Source of the DNA: Sminthopsis crassicaudata
Lineage: Eukaryota
Direction: 5' to 3'
DNA: 64,000 nt
Assembly (NCBI RefSeq): GCF_048593235.1
Contig: NC_133620.1
Span: 437,253,261-437,317,260, forward strand
Part shown: positions 2,275 through 46,532 of the stretch, piece after piece
Layout of the letters: every line of letters starts with the position of its first letter
Numbering within the stretch: the first letter of the stretch is position 1
The notes under the pieces: generated by a model
Seen by the model: the letters and a program-made list of their open reading frames with translations, nothing else
Database searches by the model: none
What the model was told of the DNA's origin: nothing
Translations under genes and position numbers: made by a program

Positions 2275-2350
2275 TGTTAGGATTACTAGGTGAGAAAGGT
2301 TGTCTGGATAGTGACAAGGTGAGAATTCAGGTTGGACAATTACAAGGTGA
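2275..2350 (+). repeat. 5' LTR remnant (first 76 bp of U3 only)
   Basis: Identical to 4752-4827 over 76 nt, then switches abruptly to leader sequence. Confidence 0.93.
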
Positions 2351-2404
2351 ATTTTCCAGTGGAAAAGCTTCCAATCTAGATCTCAGTCTCTCTGACCCAG
2401 AACC

Positions 2405-2410
2405 GTGAGT
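2405..2410 (+). promoter_or_regulatory. Putative retroviral major splice donor (CC|GTGAGT)
   Basis: Consensus GTGAGT in the leader about 100 nt upstream of the gag ATG, the usual position. Confidence 0.6.
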
Positions 2411-2506
2411 AACGAGGAAACTTTGTTAAAGATTAAGTGAGCGTGCTAATAGATAAATAAGGAACTTAACTTGTTAAGGGCTAAACCAGGAATCTCTTAT
2501 AGTGAA

Positions 2507-4255
2507 ATGGGGCAAACACCTTCTGTTCAAGGAAAATGTTTGGAGAGCATCATCAAGGTTATGAAAAGCCAAGGATTGATTATAATTTTGGAAGAGATTA
2601 CTGAACTTTTAAGAACTGTGAAGGTCATATATCCTTGTTTCTCTCTGGAAAAAGAATTGGATCCAGATGAGTGGAAATTAGTAGGAGAGCAATTAGGTGA
2701 ACACTACAATTGTCTTTGTGACATTTTACCCTTTGGTTCCAGACCAAACTCAGTTTCCAAAGATACAATTCATACCTACAATTTAATCCAAATGGCTTTA
2801 AAAAATGTTATTCTAAAGGAAGAGATGAAGGAGCAAAATGGGGAAGTGTCAACTAAACTAGGTGAAAAGGATGAATCAGATAACAATGAAGTTAAGTACA
2901 ATTCTGAGCAACAGCAACAGGAGCACCTCCCATCTCCTCCCTCAATTAACCCTTCAGGGGTGGAGCAAGAAGGAGGAGAGGAAGAGGCAGAAACACAAAC
3001 AGAATTGTCTGTGAAGCAGTCTAAGCCTATGACAAGATTAGAAAAAGCATTGGTTAAAGCTAAAAAAGAAGGACAGGATATAAGTGATTTTATACATGCA
3101 TATCCTGTGATTGAAAATATTGACTCTGTAGGTAAAAAAAGGAGAAGATATGCACCTTTAGATTTGAATAAAATTAAGGATTTGAAAAAAGGTTGTACCC
3201 TTTATGGGGCTACATCAGCTTATGTCAAAATGTTACTAGATGGTTTGTCTTATGAAGTCCTAACCCCGAATGATTGGAAATCCATAGCTAGGACATGTCT
3301 GGAACCTGGAGAAAATTTATTATGGCTTGCGGAATTTCATGAATTATGTAAAATTCAAGTCAGATGCAATTTGGAAATAGGAGTTAACACACAATTCACT
3401 TTTGAGCACTTAGCTGGTGAAGGTCAGTATGGAGAGAATTCGGAACAGATTAATTATACCATGACAATATATGAGCAAATTGCTAAGGCTGCAATAAAAG
3501 CTTGGGGTGTCCTCCCTGGACAGAAAGATTGCGGAAAGGCTTTCACTAAAATACAGCAAGGTCCCAATGAACCTTTTGCAGATTTTGTGGGACGTTTGCA
3601 AACTGCTGTCAAAAGAACTATTGGAGAAAATGCAGCTACAGAAATAATGACCAGACATCTGGCTAAGGAAAATGCCAATGAGATTTGCAAAAGAATTATA
3701 TGGGGATTAGACAAAGATGCTCCTTTAGAGGAGATCATAAGATGCTGTGCTACAGTGGGAACAAATGCTTTTTACACCCGGACAATGATGAATGTGGAAA
3801 GGCAGGGTCCCTCCTGTCAAGGGACTTCTAGAGAAACTCGGCGATGTTTTCAATGTGGAAAAATTGGACATCTAAGAGCTCAGTGTAGGTATGGAGATAC
3901 AGTGAAAAGACAGGGTGAGAGAAGACCTAAAACCCCATGTCCAAAATGCAACAGAGGACTCCATTGGGCATCAGAGTGTAGAATAATTCAGGGAAATGGG
4001 ATGAGGGGCCCAGGTCCAGGGCCCCAGGCAAAAAAGACTTGGGGCATGATGGCAGCTGATGTTACACCCAAAGAACCTTTAGAAGGTCAGGACTTTGATT
4101 TGATCAACCAGGAGAAAAGCAATCACATGGCAGAAAGGGATTACCCAATCAGTCAGCCAAAAGGCAATCAGATTGCAAAAATGGATTACACTTGGGGAGA
4201 ATACAGGCCTTTTAAACCAACAGGGCTGTGTCCAGTGCAAACAATTCCAATGTAA
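2507..4255 (+). CDS. gag: Betaretrovirus-like Gag polyprotein, 582 aa, uninterrupted (MA, spacer, CA, NC, tail)
   Basis: MGQTPS myristoylation motif (G2, S6); CA start AYPVIE; major homology region QGPNEPFADFVGRL (about 3557-3598); two intact CCHC knuckles CFQCGKIGHLRAQC (3845-3886) and CPKCNRGLHWASEC (3938-3979). The ORF-track start at 2471 is an upstream TTG. Confidence 0.95.
   Translation: MGQTPSVQGKCLESIIKVMKSQGLIIILEEITELLRTVKVIYPCFSLEKELDPDEWKLVGEQLGEHYNCLCDILPFGSRPNSVSKDTIHTYNLIQMALKNVILKEEMKEQNGEVSTKLGEKDESDNNEVKYNSEQQQQEHLPSPPSINPSGVEQEGGEEEAETQTELSVKQSKPMTRLEKALVKAKKEGQDISDFIHAYPVIENIDSVGKKRRRYAPLDLNKIKDLKKGCTLYGATSAYVKMLLDGLSYEVLTPNDWKSIARTCLEPGENLLWLAEFHELCKIQVRCNLEIGVNTQFTFEHLAGEGQYGENSEQINYTMTIYEQIAKAAIKAWGVLPGQKDCGKAFTKIQQGPNEPFADFVGRLQTAVKRTIGENAATEIMTRHLAKENANEICKRIIWGLDKDAPLEEIIRCCATVGTNAFYTRTMMNVERQGPSCQGTSRETRRCFQCGKIGHLRAQCRYGDTVKRQGERRPKTPCPKCNRGLHWASECRIIQGNGMRGPGPGPQAKKTWGMMAADVTPKEPLEGQDFDLINQEKSNHMAERDYPISQPKGNQIAKMDYTWGEYRPFKPTGLCPVQTIPM
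3991..4025 (+). promoter_or_regulatory. gag-pro type -1 ribosomal frameshift signal
   Basis: Slippery heptamer G GGA AAT (3991-3997) in correct phase, 7-nt spacer, perfect 7-bp stem GGGGCCC (4005-4011)/GGGCCCC (4019-4025); same position as betaretroviral QGN..RG motif. Confidence 0.72.
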
Positions 4256-4259
4256 TTGC

Positions 4260-4509
4260 CAGATGATGAGAAGAGATTTACAAAGTGGTAAATAGAAGGT
4301 AATTAGATAGGTTAACTGCCTGGGGGAGAGGGTTTGCTTGTATTTCTTCAGCAGGAGAAGGAATCAAATGGGTGCCAACGAGTCATATTCGCCTTGTCCA
4401 TCAGAGAGAGACAGAAAAAGAGAAAAGACCTCAAAATAAAGGAGAAGATCTAAGAAACATCCTACACCGAAAGAGCATGGATAATAACAAGACTGTTAAA
4501 GAACTTTAA
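4260..4509 (+). pseudogene. pol: Integrase C-terminal domain relic
   Basis: QMMRRDLQSGK*K then frameshift, then LDRLTAWGRGFACISSAGEGIKWVPTSHIRLVH; WGRGFAC..W.P is the betaretroviral IN C-terminal motif; stop at 4507-4509. Confidence 0.85.
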
Positions 4510-4735
4510 AAACCAGCAGGAATCATTGGACTTCCTCACACAAGATGAGACTAATGGACAATGGACTTATGGACATTTATAAATTTTCAATTTATGATTA
4601 TTTGATTATGTTATTTGTCATATACTTCTAGCATGTATTATGTTACTATGTTACTATGTGCTTATGTAATTTATGTAATTATGTGTAATACTTCCCATAT
4701 TGATGTATGATGATGACTGTCCTATGTTCTAAATC

Positions 4736-4751
4736 AAAAGAAAGGGGGAGA
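4736..4751 (+). promoter_or_regulatory. Polypurine tract
   Basis: AAAAGAAAGGGGGAGA immediately 5' of the LTR TG. Confidence 0.92.
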
Positions 4752-5175
4752 TGTTAGGATTACTAGGTGAGAAAGGTTGTCTGGATAGTGACAAGGTGAG
4801 AATTCAGGTTGGACAATTACAAGGTGAGAACTCAGGTTGACTTGATAGTCCTCTGGCTCAGATTCTTAAGAGGAGCAAGCTCATTGGTTGGAGTACTTCT
4901 TCCCAGAAGCCCTTGCATTATCCCATGCCCATTCTCTGGGAGGATAAAAGAGGACAGCACTCCAGAAAGAGAAGAAGACTCTGCATTGCATCAGGCTTGA
5001 CGGGGCTCTCTGCAGGAAGGGAAGTCACTTCTCTGGACAAGAGTTAACAGCAACTGCCTGGAGACAACGGTTCACTACAGGAAGAAGAATCTGTCGGAGA
5101 GATTTGAGTAGAAGACACAGCAGATCTCTTCCCAGAGAGTGATCCGGCAGCTTCTAGAGACGACAGCTCACTACA
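4752..5175 (+). repeat. 3' LTR, 424 bp
   Basis: TGTTAGG..CTCACTACA; three imperfect GGTGAGAA..AGGTTG units in U3, ATTGG (inverted CCAAT) and a GATAAAAG TATA-like motif. Confidence 0.93.
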
Positions 5176-6139
5176 ATGATGGACATGATTCTCTTCGACA
5201 ATTGAATGATTTAAACCAGTTCCAATTGTTCAGTTATGAAGAGAATCAGCTGCACCCAGAGGGAGAACTATGGAAATGAGTGTGGACCACAATATAACAT
5301 TTCCACTCTTTCTCTTATTGTTTGCTTGCATTTTTGTTTTCCTTCTCAGGTTTTTTTTTTACCTTCTTTCTAGATCTGATTTTTCTTGTGCAACAAGATA
5401 ACTACAAATATGTATACATATATTGTATTTAACATATACTTTAACATATTTAACATGTATTAGACTACCTGCCATCTAGGGGAGGGAGTGGGGGGAAGGA
5501 AGGGAAAAGTTGGAAAACAAGGCTTTGTAAGAGTCAATTTTGAAAAATGACCCATGCATATTCTTATAAATAAAAAGCTATAATAATTTTTTTAAAAAGA
5601 GGGGTTTGAATTAGATGAATTTTAAGATCTCCTGTGGCTCAAAAAACTCTGAATTCAATCTTAAATCTCACATTAAACTTAAGATGTATCAGAAGCATAA
5701 ATGGTTTCTCAACTTTAATATAAAACAGTAGATAAGAATAAAGAAAAGGGGGTAAAGTTGGTCTCAGATCCTAGGAATAGGGATGGTTGATGGAAGGAGT
5801 AAAGGAGATAGTGAATTGGAGAAGAATAATGCTGATAAAAATAATTAAAGTAGCATTTCTATAGTGCTTTGAGGTTTGCAAAGCACTCAAGAAATATTAC
5901 TTTGTTTGATCCTTATAACAAGGATATGTGTAATTATTATTATTGTTTCTATTTTACAAATGAAGAAACTGAGATAAAGTATTGTTTAATATCTGAAGAT
6001 CTTAGTAACTTAGCTTCCTGTTAAAGTGAGTTTGTTTGGGACAGAGAAAGTGATGGCAAAGATTGTTTTTCTCTAGATTATAGGGTACCTCTCCATATTT
6101 TCCTATTCCATTTACCATCTTTTGAATATATATATCTTA

Positions 6140-9338: not shown

Positions 9339-11419
9339 TTTTTTTTTTTTTTTTTTTTTAATTTTTTTTTTATTATATATATATTTTATAATATTATCCC
9401 TTGTATTCATTTTTCCAAATTGCCCCCCCTCCCTCTATTCCCTCCCCCCGACGACAGGCAATACCATACATTTTACATGTGTTACAATATAATCTAAGTA
9501 CAATACATGTGTGTGAATATCATTTTCTTGTTGCACAATAAACATTAGAATCCGAAGGTACATGCAACCTGGGCAGACAGATATTAGTGCTAACAATTTA
9601 CATTCGCTTCCCAGTGTTCCTTCTCTGGGTATAGTTATTTCTGTCCATCATTGATCAACTGGAAGTGAGTTGGATCTTCTTTATGTTGAAGATTTCCACT
9701 TCCATCAGAATACATCCTCATACAGTATTGTTGTTGAAGTATACAGTGATCTTCTGGTTCTGCTCATTTCACTCAGCATCAGTTGATTTAAGTCTCTCCA
9801 ACCCTCTCTGTATTCCTCCTGCTGGTCATTTCTTACAGAGCAATAATATTCCATAACCTTCATATACCACAATTTACCCAACCATTCTCCAACTGATGGA
9901 CATCCATTCATCTTCCAGTTTCTAGCTACAACAAAAAGAGCTGCCACAAACATTTTGGCACATATATGTTTCTTTCCGCTCTTTAGTATTTCTTTGGGAT
10001 ATAATCCCAGTAGTAGCGCTGCTGGGTCAAAGGGTATGCACAGTTTGATAACTTTTTGGGCATAATTCCAGATTGCTCTCCAGAATGGCTGGATTCTTTC
10101 GCAACTCCACCAGCAATGTATTAGTGTCCCAATTTCCCCACATCCCCTCCAACATTTATCATTATTTGTTCCTGTCATCTTAGCCAATCTGACAGGTGTG
10201 TAGTGGTATCTCAGAGTGGTCTTAATTTGCATTTCTCTGATCAGTAGTGATTTGGAACACTCTTTCATGTGAGTGGATATAGTTTCAATTTCTTCCTCTG
10301 AGAATTGTCTGTTCATATCCTTTGACCATTTATCAATTGGAGAATGGTTCGGTTTCTTATAAATTAGGGTCAGTTCTCTATATATTTTGGAAATGAGACC
10401 TTTGTCAGAACCTTTGTTTTTAAAAATATTTTCCCAATTTGTTACTTCCCTTCTAATCTTGTTTGCATTAGTATTATTTGTACAGAAACTTTTTAGTTTG
10501 ATGTAATCAAAATCTTCTATTTTGTGATCAATAATGATCTCTAGTTCTCCTCTGGTCATAAATTCCTTCCTCCTCCACAAGTCTGAGAGGTAGATTATCC
10601 TCTGTTCCTCTAATCTATTTATTATCTCCCTCTTTATGCCTAAATCATGGACCCATTTTGATCTTATCTTGGTATATGGTGTTAAGTGTGGATCCATATC
10701 TAATTTCTGCCATACTAATTTCCAGTTTTCCCAACAGTTTTTTCCGAATAATGAATTTTTATCCCTAATGTTGGAATCTTTGGGTTTGTCAAAGATTAGA
10801 TTGCTATAGATGTACCCTTTTTTGTCCTTTGTATCTAATCTGTTCCACTGATCTACCGGTCTATTTCGTAGCCAATACCAAATGGTTTTGGTGACTGCTG
10901 CTATATAATATAGCTTTAGATCAGGTACACTTAGACCACCTTCCTCTGAGTTTTTTTTCATTAGTTCCCTTGCAATTCTTGACCTTTTATTCTTCCATAT
11001 GAATTTTGTTGTTATTTTTTCTAGGTCATTAAAATAGTTTCTTGGGAGTCTGATTGGTATAGCACTAAATAAATAGATTAGTTTGGGGAGTATTGTCATC
11101 TTTATTATATTCGCTCGGCCTATCCAAGAGCACTGAATGTCTTTCCAATTATTTAAATCTGATTTTATTTTTGTGGCAAGTGTTTTGTAATTTTTCTCAT
11201 ATAATTCCTGACTTTTCTTTGGTAGATGGATTCCCAAATATTTTATACTCTCAACATTTGTTTGGAATGGAATTTCTCTTTGTATCTCTTGCTGTTGCAT
11301 TTTGTTAGTGATATATAAAAATGCCGAGGATTTATGTGGATTTATTTTGTATCCTGCCACTTTGCTGAAATTTTGAATTATTTCTAGTAGCTTTTTAGCA
11401 GAGTCTTTGGGGTTCTCTA
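9339..11419 (-). mobile_element. Young 5'-truncated L1, sense to SPAG17
   Basis: Pure 21-nt poly(A) tail (T run 9339-9359), 16-bp perfect TSD GGTAGGCAATTCTTTT at 9327-9342 and 11420-11435, CT/AAAA endonuclease-type site, retained CpGs. Confidence 0.97.
9705..11419 (-). CDS. L1 ORF2p C-terminal fragment (RT end, cysteine-rich domain); frame open but start lost by 5' truncation
   Basis: 551 aa without stop in the ORF track: GYKINPHKS, KYLGI, LPKLIYLFSAIP, GGLSVPDLKLYY, CWRGCGEIGTLIHCWWSC zinc knuckle. Confidence 0.92.
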
Positions 11420-13729
11420 GGTAGGCAATTCTTTTAGACCTCCCTAATTAATTCACTATCCCACTCACCATAAGTAGCTCTAATAAACTTTTTCATGACT
11501 CCCAGGAAACTACCCATGGATCCTTCTCCAACTATCTTCCCCATTGAGAAAATCATATTATACTGAAAAAAAAACTCATGTTTTGCTGAAAAAATTGAGG
11601 GTGTTCACAAAAAGCTTTCTCTCTCTTTTTGTTTTAAGTAACCCAGATGATTTGCTCAGCCACTACTGGGTTCTAGTGCCCCACAAATTACTTTTTGTAT
11701 TTATAAATTTACTTAAGTATTTTTTCCTGCAATATAGTAAATTCTGTGAAGACAGGGATTATTTCATTTTGTCTTTGTATCTCTCTCATCTACTTATTGT
11801 CCTAGTACATAGTTGTCTTTTAATAAATGCTTGTGGATAGATTGAAAAAGAAAACATTTCCTAATAAATAGAACTATAAAAAAATGGAAACAGCTACCTT
11901 GGCCTCTGAGGTCAGTTTGGAGCTGCTGTAATCCCACCCAATATCTTTTCATCTTTTCCCTTTCCTTGGTTGGTATCAATTTTGATATTGATGTGTTTAA
12001 TTAGTTGATGATCTACCTAAACATGGACAGCTGATTCTTGAATGACTTATATGTTAATAAGTAGTAATTTTCTGAATATTGAAAATAGTCAATTTCAATT
12101 TTAGAAAATTTATTTGAATTGCCTGGTTCTTCCAACTCCTTTAATGGAGAAAACATTGTTATATAATCAGGAGGTTTCTGAGTAAACTTTTGGTCTTTGA
12201 CATTTCATGAGCATGAACATTTTTTGGCCATTGTCATCCTGCATCTTCTGTCTCATTAAAGTCAGAGCATGAAGGCTAATGTTGACTTAAAAATCTTGTC
12301 CAATTCTTCAAATAATGTCTTTGCCTCCTTCTTTTACAACAGATTTTGGCATATAATGTGTAATTTTCTTTACGTGGGATGCAAGATGAAACTAACTCTT
12401 GCTTACTCTTGAAGGAGAACTTGTGAGCCATATTTCCATTTAACTGTAGCTTCTTTCTTCTGGTTTTATTTAAAGCAAGAATGTCAATGATTAAATGCCT
12501 CTTATATCATATTCACTCATTAAATAGCTAAAATTTTTACATTTTAAGGACCAGAAGTTAAATAAACATTTAGAGACATTTAAAATTGGCATAATTTTTT
12601 AGTACATTTTAACACAAAACTAGACTTTGTTTTTGATGACTGTCACTGCAAAAATAGGAGACTCCCCATTGGATAGAGTGTGTTTTATATTTGGTTTTGC
12701 TTGATAGGTTTCACAGAGTGCCAAAAAAAATTCATCAGCAAGTAACCAATTAGTTGATGATGGTCCCTTTTTATTCTAAGGCAAGTTTTCACATAATGGA
12801 GCTACTTTCTGTTGCTTAGTGGAACCCGTCTATTTGTTTAGTCTGATAGACCACAGGCTCATGCCTGAAACTATATGGTTAGGCCTTATCAGAGATTTTT
12901 CCTCCTCCTTCAGGAAGCCAACTTAGCCTTGGGACAAATTTTACTGAATCCTTGACACTTCACCCAACAAACATGATTTAATTTTGGGAGCCTGGGACAT
13001 TATAGAGCTGAGAGAGGAAGATAAAAATGGATGTTACCCTTTACAGAAGTCAATATGAATCGGGTTAATGTCTAATTCATACTTGATTTGTGTTTTCTAG
13101 TCTTAGATACCTCACTAGAATGTGACTTTCTTGAAAATATTTTCAGCTGTGCAAATTTGTGTAAATCACTTAAATTATCTGAGCCATAATTTCCTCAACC
13201 ATAAAACTGGAATATTGTGAAGCTTGAAATAGCACTGGTCAGTGAAAAGAATGCTGGATTAAGGAACTAGCTTCATCATTTACTACCTGGGCAACTTTCA
13301 GAAAATAATTTCCCATTTCTGGATCTCAATTTCTCCATTTGTAAAATAAAGACTAGATCATTTCCAAGGTCTCTTACAGCTATAAGTGGTGCATGTACCT
13401 ATTTAAGCATGTTTTCTCCACCATTAGAATACAAGCGCCTTTAGAGTAGGAATGTTTTAAAAATGTTTTCTTTGTATTCCCAGTGCTTAGTCTAGTGTCT
13501 AATACAGGGTAATTTCTTAATACTTATTGATTTATTTATAAAACTACATAATTTGTCCATCCATCTCTCTTTCTATCTATTTATCTATCTATAGCTAATA
13601 AGGATATCAACAACAATGGTCTATATTTTTGCTAGAAACATATATGGAAAATATGTGCTAGAAATATATATGAAAAGAGAGCCTGAAAAGAACATTTGGA
13701 AGGCAAAGGATCATTGGGAACTTCACTCA

Positions 13730-23303: not shown

Positions 23304-23456
23304 NNNNNNNNNNNNNNNNNNNNNNNNNNNNNNNNNNNNNNNNNNNNNNNNNNNNNNNNNNNNNNNNNNNNNNNNNNNNNNNNNNNNNNNNNNNNNNNNN
23401 NNNNNNNNNNNNNNNNNNNNNNNNNNNNNNNNNNNNNNNNNNNNNNNNNNNNNNNN
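23304..23456. other. Assembly gap (153 N)
   Basis: N run. Confidence 1.
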
Positions 23457-28165: not shown

Positions 28166-29224
28166 TAAAAAAATCAAATGCTGCTTTCTTTTAAAGAACT
28201 TTTATTGCCTTTTGTGGTCCTTGAAATATGTGGGTGTGATAGCCATTGAGCTTGGAAAGAAAAAGCATCTTTACCTAAGTTGTTGCTCTGGGTTAGTCTG
28301 AGGGAAAAAGTTGCATCTGTTTCACACATGTTTCTCAGTGTTTTGAAGTAGGGATAAACACCTTATTTCCAGTATGTCAATCAACTGATTAATCAATCAA
28401 AAACATTTATTAAACACTTATTGAATGCCAAGCACTGTGCTGGGCACTTGGATTATAAAACTATAAACAGTCCTTGTCTTTCTGGATTTCACATTCTACT
28501 GTGTGCTTACTAAGTAAATTGTATTACTTTCATTGTTTTCCCTTTTTTCTTCTCTTTTATCTCTCCTTCCCTTATTTATTCTCTTCTATCTCTTTTATTT
28601 CTCCCTCCTTTATTCAATTTTCTTCTCTTTCCTTTCCTTTTCATTTCCCTTCTGTCAAAGTCTTAGGTTATCCAATGACACCTATGGGCTTTATTTGTAC
28701 TGATGTCCCACACAGGATCAAAAAGCACAGTCTGAGGGGAGATCTGATTTTTTAAAAATATTTTTGTCAACACTGAATAGACTCACATATAGTCATTCCC
28801 CAAAAAGGTAATCCTAGCATAAAATATAACACAACAACAGAGGCCCCAATTTGTGCTCAAAAGTTTATCTTCTTCCAGAGATGGCTTCTATCCCAAAGCT
28901 GAATGGGACTTGGTATGGAGATATACCCCGTTCCTTTTATGTCTGGTATTGTGACTTTTTTTTTCCCCCAGAACACCATGCCATCTCAGAACTTCAGTTT
29001 ATGTAACAAACATTGATTGAGTCTCTACCATTTGTTAAATCCTATAGGAGTTAGGAAGATCCCTTATGACATAATTTGCTCTATAAGAACTTGTAGACTT
29101 TTGAGGAAAATATGGAGTCTTTACATAATTCACTACATTTTGATATAAAAGTACTTCTTCCCTCTTCAAATGCTCCTAGAATATTTTGCTTGAATTCCTC
29201 TTTTGTTCATATCACACTCTCCCT

Positions 29225-29600
29225 TATATGATTTTTTTATGTATTTAATTTTTTTCTAGTTATACATGTACTTTCATTTTTTAAAAAACACATTTCTTTA
29301 TGAATCATGTTGGAAAGAAAAAATCAGACCAAAAGAGAAAAACAATGAGAGAAAATATAGAAAAAAAAGTGAACATAGAATGTGTTGATTTACTGAAATC
29401 TAATTTACATTAGATAAGCTTTTGAGCATGAACTGGGAGCTCTGTTGCTGTGCTATATTTTATGCTAGGATTACTTTCTTTGGGGAATGACTCTCTATAT
29501 ATGACTCTGTTTGATGCTGTCTAAAATTTAAGCATGAGAGTTCTCTGGATGCAGATAGCAGCACTTTCCATTCAAAGTTTATTGGAAATCATTCTTTTTG
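29225..29600 (-). mobile_element. L1 3' UTR fragment carrying an unrelated internal segment
   Basis: catttctttatgaatcatgttggaaag..aacatagaatgtgttgatttac, then resumes at gttctctggatgcagat. Confidence 0.7.
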
Positions 29601-34719: not shown

Positions 34720-35350
34720 AGTATGCAGAGTGCCACAAATGCATTTACACAAAAGGACATATAAGATGTGCTGCCGAAGTTTGACTCACAAATATATCAT
34801 AAAGCATTAGAGGTAGTGGGAAATGATGAGCAGGATGCTTTTAGAAAAAAAAATAAACCTGGGAAGTCCTCCATGAACTCAAGCAAAGTGAAATGTACTG
34901 TCTATAAAGTAATAGCAATGTTGTGGAACGACCAGATGTAAATGACATTCCTATTCTCAGCAANNNNNNNNNNNNNNNNNNNNNNNNNNNNNNNNNNNNN
35001 NNNNNNNNNNNNNNNNNNNNNNNNNNNNNNNNNNNNNNNNNNNNNNNNNNNNNNNNNNNNNNNNNNNNNNNNNNNNNNNNNNNNNNNNNNNNNNNNNNNN
35101 NNNNNNNNNNNNNNNNNCTCATTTTTTCTATCTCTGTCTCTCCCTTACCTCCTCTCTTTTTACTTTTTTTCTCATGGGTTTTTTATTAGGGTAGGAGATC
35201 TATTTTCTTTCACAACATGACTTTTATGGAAATGTTTTGCATAACTTCACATGTAGTTTCTTAATGGAGCTAGGGGTGAGAATAAGAGAAAATGGAACTC
35301 AAAAAGTTTTTTTTTTAAATGGGAAAAATCTGTTTTAAATGTAATTGAGG
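34720..35350 (+). mobile_element. Old L1 3' relic spanning an assembly gap
   Basis: ccatgaactcaagcaaagtgaaatg.. and ..gggtaggagatctattttctttcacaacatgac. Confidence 0.6.
34964..35117. other. Assembly gap (154 N)
   Basis: N run. Confidence 1.
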
Positions 35351-37426: not shown

Positions 37427-39009
37427 TTCTCTAAGTATTTTTAAAATCTGTTCCCCTCAAATCCAGAGTCCAGTGGATTATGCCCAGCTTTCTTCCATTT
37501 CATTAAGGGAACTTCAGTAAATTTGCATAATCATCCTTAATATGAAGATAGCTTGCTCCTTGTGTCATATAGCTATTTCTTAGCTTGAACTAAATGTATT
37601 TTCTCTCATTCTCCTGTGTCATATTTTTACTCTGTCTACCACATTAACAAAGATTAGGACAAAGAAAGCCTAGTATGATGGATAGAACATTGGATTTGGA
37701 ATCAGGAAGACCTATATGAGATCTACATTAGACACTAGCTAGATCTGTGATTCTGAACAAGGCACTTAATAATTCTAGACCTCATTTTCTTTATTTGTGA
37801 AACAAAGGAGTTGGAGTTGATAATTTCTAAGCTACCTTTCAGGTCTAAATTAGTTTGTATAGTGTCATATCTAAATGACTTTTGCAGTCCCATTCAACAC
37901 TAGGTTTGTGCTCCTGTAAATCCCTTCTATCTATTTGGGCTCTTTTTCTTGTCCTTAAAACATTTCTTCCATTTCCCCCACAAAGAAACATGTTGTAATC
38001 TTTAATAAATTGTAGAAAAGAGAGTGATTTCTTGAGTTCTTTAATTTTTTTCTTCTACGAAGAACATTAGCCTTCTCTTCGAATATAGAGAGCTATTCCA
38101 TGGTTATCTTAGAAAAACAAACCTCTTCTCAGGTTGCTGAAAAATTATGCTTATTCTCTTCTTATTAGAAGTTAGCTGTGAGTTAGTTAGAAGTAAGGAT
38201 TTCTAATACAGAATTCATCTGGAAAACTCCAACAGGGAAGTATAGCAATTTGACCAGGATTATATCACTTGTCAGCAGTAGGGGCAAAGGCAGAACCTGG
38301 AGAACAATAGATTAAAGGTTGGAAGGAGTTCAGAGGTCATCTAGTCTTCATCACTTAACACCTGGACTACTGAAGTAGCCCTCTGATTGGCCTCCTTGAT
38401 TCAAGTGTCTCCCCATTCAATACATCTGATTCAGCTCCAAGGTGGATGTTTCTATAAATGTCATTCCCCTTTTCAATAAATTCCAGTGACTCTTGATGAT
38501 CCCAGGACCAAATATAAAATAATCTATTAACTTTTAAAGATCAGTCAATGAGAATTTGTTAAGTGCCTAAGTGTAGAGTATGGGCTGGATCCCTGGAGGG
38601 CCTCAGGGTCAGCCAGAGTCAGGATAAATTAAACTCCTTAGTCTTTCAGGGGAGAAGTGAAGGAGGCAGACAAGCAAAATCCAGATTCTGGAGTCCAGAG
38701 TCACCAGCCTCTCTTCTCCTAGTCCTGCAGCCAAGTGACTCTGCCTGTCTTTCCCTGCCCTCCAATCCTTGCCTCTGATTATCTTAACACCAAAAATTCA
38801 GCAAGCACCAACAGTGAGAAGAGCAATTTATCCAAATATATGCTAATAGAGTCATTGTCTCACATCAAGTAGATAATTAGTCTTAAGTGCTTGGTTGTCT
38901 GATTCAAGCATACCTTTTTGAGTTTCAGCCCTCTACACCTAGGGATTATGTGAAGACTTCCCTCAGTGGAATGAAGTATGAGAACAAATTGTTCAGTGGC
39001 CATGAAGGG

Positions 39010-39230
39010 TGGCTGAAGAAGACACTGTGGAGTGTTTATATCTTAGTCAGACATCCAAAATGCCACCTCAGCCCGGACCATCATCAGTCACCTTGACTTT
39101 TGTCCAACTTCTATGACTCTAGAAGAGAGGTTGATAGACTTTGGGCAACTCAGTCTTATTTAAATCCAATTCATACACACGTCATCACTTTTGATGTCAT
39201 TGGTTTTTGTGAACAAAAGACAAATGACTA
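39010..39230 (+). mobile_element. Mar1-type marsupial SINE
   Basis: accatcatcagtcaccttgacttttgtc..ttaaatccaattcat..gatgtcattgg. Confidence 0.65.
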
Positions 39231-39818
39231 CCACAAACCTCATTCCTCTTATTTTACAGATTAGGAAGTCCTGACATGGAGTGATGAGGTGGTTTGTCCC
39301 AGATCACATAGGAAGCATATATGCTATCCCCTGAGATCTGGGATTTGAACTCAAGCTCTCTGACTTCAAGTGCAATTTCCCTCCAGTATGTATATTTTAT
39401 GATGTTTCGATGATATGTGATTTCATCAGTATAGAGTACTCAGAAGTTGGCATTTTCTATTTTTTAACATCACTTTTATTTCTCAATAGATTCCTTCTCT
39501 TCTCTATCCACTCCAACTATTCCTAATCTGACCCAGGGCTCTTTCTACTATACTTCTCTGCTCAGCTAGCTATTATAGATAACGTATCAATGTTGAAAAT
39601 ATGGATCTCCCTTATTTTTAGATTTAATGTGGGCATTAAAGGGAAAAAAATTCAGTGGGAGCAGTATACAATGGGAGCAAATCAGGAGTCAGGATGAAAA
39701 CAAAGAGAAAAGAAATAGTTTTCAATAGTTCATAAGAACATTCCATCTATGCTAATTTTGCTGTTGTTTATTTCCTGGTTATGTATATATGTTTGCTAAA
39801 AAACATAAAATAATAGGA

Positions 39819-40144
39819 TGTTAGGATTACTAAGTGAGAACTCAGGTTTTCTGGACAATTACAAGGTGAAAACTCAGGTTGACTTGATAGAGGGGGCAAG
39901 CTCATTGGCTGGGGTGGTTCTTCCCAGAAGCCCTTGCATTATTCCACGCCCATTCTCTGGGAGGATAAAAGAGACAGCACTGGGCCCAGAGAGCAGATCG
40001 GCCTGGAGAAGGATAAGAGCTGGAGGAGATTCAGAGCCAGGATTCAAGAAGAAAGACTCTGCATTGCATCAGGCTTGACGGGGCTCTCTGCAGGAAGGGA
40101 AGTCACTTCTAAGGACAAGAGTTATCCACTTAGTAATCCTAACA
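39819..40144 (+). mobile_element. Solo LTR of the same family as 4752-5175, with U5 replaced by an inverted U3 tip
   Basis: Aligns to the 3' LTR from TGTTAGG to GGACAAGAGTTA; ends in CACTTAGTAATCCTAACA; flanks ATAGGA / ATAGAT. Confidence 0.92.
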
Positions 40145-40693
40145 ATAGATGATGTTCAGGATCCTAAGATTTGCAAAAAACTTTGCAAACATCATTTCAC
40201 TTAATCTTCACAACAATCCCCTTATGTCTTCAGATGAAGAAATGGAAAACATAAGTGATTGGCCCATGAAAGCTGAAAGCTCAGTGGAAAGTGAGCCTCA
40301 GAGCAGATCTGTGCTTCATCCATTTAAAAGAGATGATAAAGCAACCCTGAAAGCATTTGAAATAGCTTTGGATACTCCATAGAGCCCATTCCTAGAGATC
40401 ACTAGGTGAGTGGAAGATACAGAGTTCTGGACTTGGAGACACCTTACTAGTTGTGTGGCCATAAGCAAGTCTGTCTGCCTCAGTTTCTTCAAAGGAGGAT
40501 AATAACAGCACCTACCTCAATGGGTGTTGTGAAGATCAAATGGAATTTGTAAATCAGCACATTGCTTGACACATAGTAGGTGCTTAATAAATTATTATTC
40601 CCTCTCTTCTTTTCCAACTCACATTTTTTAGAAGCTTTACTTGGTGATAGAAATGCAACCAAATTTAGAAATCTATAAGTAGGAGTCTCTTAC

Positions 40694-40881
40694 TGGTTTC
40701 TCTTCTTCCTTTATAATGACTGGTGGTGGCTCTTCTTCTTTGGGAGGCTCTTTGTGCTTTTCTTTACCCTTAGGGGCTTTATTTTTTACTTTTGGAGGTG
40801 GGGTAGGTGGAGTGGGAATCACAGTTTGAGTATGTGCTGAAGGAATATTCAACATTTCTTCTAATTCCAAGTCCTTTTCCT
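40694..40881 (-). CDS. SPAG17: SPAG17 coding exon, (E)EKDLELEEMLNIPSAHTQTVIPTPPTPPPK..EEEKP
   Basis: ttcacag|AG acceptor, CCA|gtaaga donor, 188 nt, phase 1 to 0. Confidence 0.92.
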
Positions 40882-41180
40882 CTGTGAAAATAGGGAAGGG
40901 GAAGGAAAGGAAATACCTCAATTATTTCTTTGTACACCAAATACTCATCCAATATGAAAGTTGTTAAAATTGATTAGAATAGTAGTTAAAAGAACTACAA
41001 TAGTCATAATTAGTAATCACATTGATGAGATCATAGATCCATATGCCAAATATTTAATCCATTTCCTACCCTTGATGTCTGGCTAGGTTAAACGGAGAGG
41101 GTAGTTTTTAAAGATTAAAAATTAATAATGCTATTCAGAAATTGTGTGAGAGATGGGGGGAGAGAAAGAGAAATGTGGAG

Positions 41181-41698
41181 NNNNNNNNNNNNNNNNNNNN
41201 NNNNNNNNNNNNNNNNNNNNNNNNNNNNNNNNNNNNNNNNNNNNNNNNNNNNNNNNNNNNNNNNNNNNNNNNNNNNNNNNNNNNNNNNNNNNNNNNNNNN
41301 NNNNNNNNNNNNNNNNNNNNNNNNNNNNNNNNNNNNNNNNNNNNNNNNNNNNNNNNNNNNNNNNNNNNNNNNNNNNNNNNNNNNNNNNNNNNNNNNNNNN
41401 NNNNNNNNNNNNNNNNNNNNNNNNNNNNNNNNNNNNNNNNNNNNNNNNNNNNNNNNNNNNNNNNNNNNNNNNNNNNNNNNNNNNNNNNNNNNNNNNNNNN
41501 NNNNNNNNNNNNNNNNNNNNNNNNNNNNNNNNNNNNNNNNNNNNNNNNNNNNNNNNNNNNNNNNNNNNNNNNNNNNNNNNNNNNNNNNNNNNNNNNNNNN
41601 NNNNNNNNNNNNNNNNNNNNNNNNNNNNNNNNNNNNNNNNNNNNNNNNNNNNNNNNNNNNNNNNNNNNNNNNNNNNNNNNNNNNNNNNNNNNNNNNNN
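41181..41698. other. Assembly gap (518 N)
   Basis: N run. Confidence 1.
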
Positions 41699-45992: not shown

Positions 45993-46532
45993 NNNNNNNN
46001 NNNNNNNNNNNNNNNNNNNNNNNNNNNNNNNNNNNNNNNNNNNNNNNNNNNNNNNNNNNNNNNNNNNNNNNNNNNNNNNNNNNNNNNNNNNNNNNNNNNN
46101 NNNNNNNNNNNNNNNNNNNNNNNNNNNNNNNNNNNNNNNNNNNNNNNNNNNNNNNNNNNNNNNNNNNNNNNNNNNNNNNNNNNNNNNNNNNNNNNNNNNN
46201 NNNNNNNNNNNNNNNNNNNNNNNNNNNNNNNNNNNNNNNNNNNNNNNNNNNNNNNNNNNNNNNNNNNNNNNNNNNNNNNNNNNNNNNNNNNNNNNNNNNN
46301 NNNNNNNNNNNNNNNNNNNNNNNNNNNNNNNNNNNNNNNNNNNNNNNNNNNNNNNNNNNNNNNNNNNNNNNNNNNNNNNNNNNNNNNNNNNNNNNNNNNN
46401 NNNNNNNNNNNNNNNNNNNNNNNNNNNNNNNNNNNNNNNNNNNNNNNNNNNNNNNNNNNNNNNNNNNNNNNNNNNNNNNNNNNNNNNNNNNNNNNNNNNN
46501 NNNNNNNNNNNNNNNNNNNNNNNNNNNNNNNN
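45993..46532. other. Assembly gap (540 N)
   Basis: N run. Confidence 1.

Follow-up and report, generated by a model that had tools for sequence, protein, structure and literature searches.

A retroviral LTR fragment ending in an inverted copy of its own U3 tip, possibly produced by plus-strand fold-back

Introduction

The closest described counterparts of the element analysed here are the aberrant one-ended integrations of HIV-1 and ASLV, in which one end is normal and the host joins the other, truncated one to viral DNA or to its own, in either orientation (Varadarajan et al. 2016, PMC5041404). In XMRV, a viral 5' base is kept in the left copy of the target site duplication (TSD) at 1 of 13 sites with a 4-bp repeat (Kim et al. 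2010, PMC2857682).

The present element, a fragment of the long terminal repeat (LTR) of an endogenous retrovirus (ERV), spans 326 bp at positions 39819-40144 of the window, i.e. the whole 64-kb stretch of DNA that was analysed. Like the HIV-1 and ASLV products, it has one normal integrase junction; in those products, the other end is joined by the host, often through short homology. They are, however, cell-culture products of drugs or mutant viral ends, usually with long duplications of the flanks, whereas here a germ-line LTR fragment carries an intact U3 tip at both termini and the duplication amounts to 4-6 bp only. The element resembles the XMRV case in the apparent change of the LTR-proximal part of the left TSD to the viral overhang sequence, but in XMRV this concerns one base in a normal two-ended provirus, and here two bases beside a rearranged LTR.

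Template switching has been described in two further settings. Complex LTR-retrotransposon insertions likewise combine an abnormal switch during reverse transcription with integration of the product and a flanking TSD, but these are direct-orientation dimers with three LTRs and normal ends, and the word 'invert' does not occur in that paper (Sabot and Schulman 2007, PMC1950507). In short template-switch mutations, a reverse-complement fragment of 18-20 nt makes a perfect inverted repeat, as in the present case, but those events are local and belong to chromosomal replication (Loytynoja and Goldman 2017, PMC5453318), in contrast to a jump of about 280 nt that ends at an integrase cut site. The finding belongs with these known products of aberrant integration or template switching, as a variant, and the insertion is probably a one-off slip of an already known kind.

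The majority of dasyurid ERVs belong to MEBrv 3, an env-less class II family, the representative of which has a perfect 6-bp TSD, a TC dinucleotide separating the primer-binding site from the CA of U5, and a short terminal repeat (PMC11334065, available text). On this precedent, a 6-bp stagger and short terminal repeats are expected, and a perfect repeat of 18 bp is out of line.

Structure of the element

The element, its flanks and the comparator provirus comprise the following features (positions in the window).

39813-39816, plus strand: left copy of the duplicated host bases (ATAG); the right flank begins with the same tetramer (40145-40148)
39817-39818, plus strand: GA, either the retained viral U3 5' dinucleotide or bases 5-6 of a 6-bp TSD; in the sister provirus, TG is likewise separated from the polypurine tract by GA (4750-4751), and the identity of GA as an overhang is suggested by analogy
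39819-39836, plus strand: left arm, the U3 att tip of the LTR; 17/18 identical to both sister LTR starts
39819-40124, plus strand: forward LTR segment with U3, a TATA-like GATAAAA at 39964 and part of R, delimited by alignment to 4752-5046 and a motif scan
39839-39843, plus strand: AACTC, complementary to the GAGTT at 40119-40123 and probably the site where the fold-back landed
40119-40126, plus strand: switch junction, GAGTT followed by ATC where CT is predicted, from a three-way comparison of the observed, fold-back and sister sequences
40127-40144, minus strand: right arm, the inverted U3 att tip ending on CA; 18/18 complementary to the left arm
40145-40150, plus strand: right flank hexamer ATAGAT, host target, read from the sequence
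40151-40168, plus strand: host stretch resembling GA plus the U3 tip (16/19 columns), with a possible hairpin with the right arm (-6.7 kcal/mol)
2275-5175, plus strand: gag-only sister provirus used as comparator, with a 5' LTR stub (2275-2350), the gag frame (2453-4255), the polypurine tract (4736-4749) and the 3' LTR (4752-5175)

The 18-bp perfect inverted repeat that defines the element in the initial annotation is confirmed, 39819-39836 and 40127-40144 being exact reverse complements of each other (18/18), with the complementarity breaking at the first base beyond the TG/CA border of the LTR. Inward, the repeat extends over 26 columns with one mismatch and one gap, up to AACTC (39839-39843) and GAGTT (40119-40123). 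The probability of the given 18-mer occurring at a given site by chance is 3.5e-11. At up to 3 mismatches, it has 4 matches in the 64-kb window, compared with 0.07 expected, and these are the two arms and the starts of the two sister LTRs; none of 100 shuffles gives 4 such matches. Each arm is identical to both sister LTR starts at 17 of the 18 positions, the exception being position 15, which is A in the arms and G in both sisters. This arm-specific A15 indicates that the template of the right arm was this element or its subfamily. The fold of the whole element (z = -3.2) reflects the arms only.

The forward segment (39819-40124) matches the sister LTR (4752-5046) in 232 of the 245 aligned columns (94.7%) but is interrupted by several long indels, from which the element and the sister are taken to represent different subfamilies. 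The last 129 nt of the sister LTR are missing from the element and the inverted U3 tip stands in their place, the comparator being an LTR of another subfamily. A motif scan of the element detected none of AATAAA, ATTAAA and AGTAAA; its last 60 nt contain 25% T, and no T-rich U5 tract was found.

Two established classes of short elements invite comparison. Set against a canonical solo LTR, TG...CA termini are present on the element but the full U3-R-U5 arrangement, the poly(A) signal and the T-rich tract are absent, the comparator again being the sister LTR of the other subfamily; judged by this comparison, the element is not a canonical solo LTR. As in a MITE, terminal inverted repeats of at least 10 bp (18 bp in this case) surround a short non-coding body (326 bp), but the ends are not derived from a DNA transposase, both being the retroviral U3 tip. 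Because its ends are retroviral, the element is not a MITE.

Both subfamilies contain a U3 tandem unit of 28-32 bp (at 4782-4848 and 39820-39890), where they differ by block indels. Among the block indels that distinguish the subfamilies is a block of about 60-70 bp that the element carries after the TATA-like box.

The sister provirus

The gag of the sister is an open frame of 600 codons with Gag_p24, Gag_p24_C and zf-CCHC_5 domains, the best matches of which are an ERVK-type gag of Sminthopsis crassicaudata (96% over 459 residues) and then Sarcophilus harrisii. These matches point to a dasyurid marsupial as the likely host. Through the LTR that it has in common with this provirus of beta-like gag, the element is assigned, by sequence, to a beta-like (class II) ERV family. 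Neither protease nor reverse transcriptase (RT) was found in the sister provirus (2275-5175), and its protease-bearing homologues align over gag alone. A primer-binding site motif was not found in the sister, where the site is deleted. The 5' LTR stops after 76 nt, over which it is identical to the 3' LTR, and this identity suggests that the provirus is young.

By eye only, the sister is similar to MEBrv 3 in its beta-like gag motifs, polypurine tract, 6-bp TSD and dasyurid amplification; the MEBrv 3 representative, as given in the available text of PMC11334065, differs in having another LTR, which is 469 nt long, contains AATAAA and has no more than a short terminal repeat, and the sister, for its part, is without RT.

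The sister 3' LTR was initially described as running on for about 130 nt to a different end, and this holds, with the end now fixed at 5175, 129 nt beyond the point where the element departs. None of AATAAA, ATTAAA, AGTAAA and a T-rich U5 was found in the sister 3' LTR (4752-5175); this LTR may be shortened, or a non-canonical poly(A) signal may be in use. The terminal motif of this LTR is present twice, near 5080 and at 5175. The sister is inserted in an L1 3' UTR and is flanked by CTGATG (2269-2274) and ATGATG (5176-5181), of which CTGATG is the ancestral form, judged by another L1 copy in the window.

The switch junction

The GAGTT at which the element departs from the LTR belongs to the forward LTR (sister homologue at 5041-5045). 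Complementarity of 5 nt to U3 nucleotides 19-28 is found at only 2 of the 365 sister-LTR positions, one of which is the homologue of the switch point, and this rarity supports a fold-back. The proposed microhomology at GAGTT retains its position (40119-40123) and its complementarity to AACTC, but not the clean crossover: three bases, ATC, separate GAGTT from the arm where a clean fold-back gives two, CT. The A of ATC is the next forward base, and extension from one mismatch together with one added C would explain the junction. That the right end was copied from the U3 att tip through a template switch at GAGTT/AACTC is supported by the rare complementarity (2/365), the A15 of the arm and the CA end, in line with the first interpretation of the locus.

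The junction is present in 1 copy within the 64-kb window. The U3 tip and the sister U5 tip, that is, the natural LTR ends, form a bulged quasi-palindrome. A two-step origin, in which quasi-palindrome correction at CTCACT would be followed by a deletion, was considered and rejected, as it leaves the in-register GAGTT to chance and requires a second event.

Flanks and host site

The left and right flanks, ATAGGA and ATAGAT, agree in 4/6 positions without gaps or in 5/6 with one gap (ATAGGA / ATAG-A). The degenerate TSD of the initial annotation stands as far as these hexamers are concerned, but a perfect 6-bp duplication is not present and the one-gap alignment is equally good. The flanks can be read either as a duplicated ATAG plus viral GA or as a 6-bp TSD that has lost one G from the right copy, and both readings fit equally. 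At the two LTR-proximal bases where the flanks differ, the left flank carries the dinucleotide that precedes TG in the sister provirus; other retroviruses suggest, by analogy, that GA before TG is the 5' overhang that is normally removed. A 4-mer flank match of this kind is seen in 1.8% of random flank pairs.

At the right end, CA is joined to host DNA, which makes one canonical integrase junction; at the left end, the GA before TG fits a host-joined junction and, equally, a 6-bp TSD with one deletion. The claim that integrase inserted an aberrant cDNA is supported for the right end, which stops on CA as integrase leaves it, but action of integrase at both ends is not established, because one fold-back gives one U3 end and the left flank differs by the pre-TG bases of the sister.

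The likeness of host positions 40151-40168 to GA plus the U3 tip (16 of the 19 columns) is equalled by 19 of 24,564 overlapping background windows, which fall into 7 separate sites in the 64 kb on both strands. Since this likeness was noticed after the fact, the U3-like stretch is only a hint of a relevant feature. Its interpretation as a third copy from the same event was rejected: it has 3 differences, compared with none between the arms.

Removal of the element had been suggested to restore a MIR-type start. The SINE-type anchor motif that we take to mark such a start is matched within 2 mismatches or fewer, which is a likeness of motif only, and the AT-rich heads of other SINE copies also favour a MIR-type start at this flank; BLAST with another SINE copy of the window, however, gave no match here at E<=0.01. 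A SINE-head-like run spans the insertion site.

Both insertions of the family in the window show TSD differences only at LTR-proximal bases (2269-2274 / 5176-5181 and 39813-39818 / 40145-40150): the first base of the right copy in the sister, and the last two bases of the left copy in the element. Differences at these positions would be expected if viral 5' overhang bases are sometimes retained. Given that both insertions show such changes, TSD mismatches may partly record the repair of the junction, and not age.

Origin of the element

The initial interpretation as a whole is partly supported. The reading that we favour, with a probability of about 0.4, is that in this LTR fragment U5 was replaced by the inverted tip of its own U3 through plus-strand fold-back, after which integrase joined the CA, host repair closed the other side, and the product was inserted once. 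Under this model, the nascent plus strand would halt at GAGTTA, pair with an AACTC that lies on that strand some 280 nt upstream, extend from the mismatch and copy the U3 tip to its own 5' end, the extra C being added at that point or subsequently. Given how reverse transcription is known to proceed, a fold-back of the plus strand would pair its 3' end with its own 5' end and produce one double-stranded U3 end, not two, so that the simplest one-step history leads to a panhandle with a single double-stranded U3 att end, of which the two arms would be the two strands. Integrase would then trim this end to CA and join the CA to ATAGAT; the host 3' end would be lengthened by 4 nt (ATAG) before ligation to the 5' GA, which had not been trimmed, and the U3-like stretch 6 nt further on may have helped. 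The same fold-back might instead have been made by host polymerases after one-ended strand transfer, and the sequence fits both timings. The product, having no primer-binding site, internal sequence or canonical poly(A) signal, would be a dead end.

Several observations argue for the fold-back model: the arms are identical, including A15, which is absent from both sister LTRs; the inverted copy ends on CA, with no complementarity outside; the bases that differ between the flanks equal the pre-TG bases of the sister, and the right flank is U3-like; and the canonical poly(A) signal and the T-rich U5 are absent from the element. The poly(A) argument is weakened by the sister, which is also without a canonical signal. 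Against the model, ATAG and GA together make exactly 6 bp, the expected stagger, as predicted by two-ended but not by one-ended integration, and a single G lost on the right accounts for the flanks just as well. The XMRV integration that retained a base is read by its authors, in the available text, as two-ended (PMC2857682), pairing with the U3-like host stretch predicts 6 filled bases instead of 4, and the junction requires one mismatch plus one added base.

The next alternative, which we consider roughly half as probable, is a replicated lineage in which an ancestral fold-back replaced U5 by U3, so that the present copy would derive from a two-ended integration later reduced to a solo LTR, and multiple copies of the junction would be expected; this includes both the subfamily proposed in the initial interpretation and the case where the inverted tip is simply the normal end of the subfamily. 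In such a lineage, the run-off strand would re-anneal at the border of U5 and the primer-binding site and alter the 5' LTR, and the next round would place the new end in both LTRs. The flanks fit this history, given a 6-bp stagger and either the loss of one G or the retention of GA, and the TSD of the sister likewise differs at an LTR-proximal base. Moreover, the several long indels place the element in another subfamily, for the end of which the sister is no guide. The TC of MEBrv 3 is the complement of GA and would provide the pairing for the return (PMC11334065, available text), but it is seen in a different LTR subfamily, and the primer-binding site of the sister is deleted. The resemblance between the U3 tip and the host flank would have to be a coincidence. 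A canonical poly(A) signal and a T-rich U5 are general features of LTRs (PMC2664473, available text), and their absence from the element counts against a replicating lineage, although weakly, the sister being the same in this respect. The proposition that a dasyurid ERV lineage has actually spread with its U5 att swapped for a fold-back U3 att, giving LTRs with MITE-like 18-bp perfect terminal inverted repeats, is unlikely.

A switch after integration is less likely again. Here, a polymerase traversing a normal solo LTR would jump at GAGTT to the U3 tip, copy it backwards and return at the shared ACA, with U5 deleted, as in a long-range form of the four-point template switch. The quasi-palindromic tips offer 3-5 nt of pairing for the return at CA, and the 6-bp TSD would be kept. 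Template switches are known to make inverted repeats in mammalian genomes, but the events described in the available text are short-range, over tens of bases (PMC5453318), whereas this one would involve a jump of about 280 nt and a loss of about 130 nt. The GA of the left flank and the U3-like host stretch would also be unexplained.

Capture without integrase is improbable. In this scenario, a break would be patched by polymerase-theta-type synthesis primed on unprocessed LTR cDNA through GATG microhomology, with one fold-back before the host DNA is rejoined. A host flank that resembles the U3 tip, GA included, and untemplated bases at the junction would be accommodated, but there would be no reason for the exact stop at CA without the TC extension, nor for the duplication of ATAG.

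Very improbable is the fusion of two insertions of the same subfamily in opposite orientation by a deletion at GAGTT that spared 18-20 nt of the second LTR: 2 insertions of the family are present in the 64-kb window and neighbouring inverted repeats are unstable, but the flank match (1.8% of random pairs) and the SINE-head-like run across the site would both be due to chance. An artefact of the assembly or library is no more credible than such a fusion, for although the assembly is gapped, with 4 runs of N in the window, one of them about 1 kb from the element, the junction lacks the long overlap that a mis-join would exploit, a chimera formed by fold-back would run into the reverse complement of the left flank, which is not the case, and both flanks carry ATAG.

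Searches beyond the window

A search of sequencing runs returned 22 rows, of which six (one organism, 2 samples, 2 studies) contained 0.69-0.83 of the 362 sampled words of 37500-41100; these show the region and do not address the junction. The other 16 contained 0.08-0.22 of the sampled words, which is no evidence either way. A pattern scan of viral contigs with the 18-mer gave 0 matches. The 20 matches of the 18-mer in metagenome contigs were rejected as chance, as none of them had LTR likeness beyond 24 nt or a matching internal region. The gag search of viral contigs yielded 6 pattern matches, 0 of which were confirmed. For the 89-codon open frame across the junction, 0 homologues were found, the search returning 2 unrelated repeat proteins.

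Among published data, the first 7-mer of the LTR had 0 matches in the available part of the PMC11334065 supplement, where the 10-base blocks can hide matches, and no LTR match was found in the PMC4408412 supplements other than file 1. A second copy of the junction was not found in the viral and metagenome contigs, the proteins or the supplements of the two papers, collections that do not include the host genome, so that this result is not evidence of a single copy. No ERV LTR with U3 at both ends was found in the literature as covered by titles and the openings of abstracts, with thin coverage of subscription journals.

Implications

If present as a single copy, the element is the fossil of an aberrant integration of a kind examined until now mostly in cultured cells. 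It would carry a signature that can be read off the sequence, both strands of a single U3 end together with a retained 5' dinucleotide, and this could be counted across ERV-rich genomes. Greater importance would attach to a multicopy junction, which would point to an ERV able to replicate with two U3 att ends and to a mechanism by which long terminal inverted repeats can arise in LTRs. A spread lineage, if real, would be a mammalian retrovirus-derived MITE-like family, and a route to long perfect att repeats caught in the act.

Other features of the window

The window is part of a gapped draft, with four assembly gaps (23304-23456, 34964-35117, 41181-41698 and 45993-46532; 1365 N in all). On the minus strand, 9705-11447 contains an open frame of 580 codons that, by eye, is like the 3' part of L1 ORF2. 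In the SINE copy at 5835-5916, the 5' part matches itself in reverse (70% over 82 nt). Two inverted arms of 73 nt (28798-28870 and 29412-29484) are 85% complementary and lie 541 nt apart, with the likeness extending slightly further; they represent either one repeat present twice in opposite orientation or the termini of an old DNA transposon.
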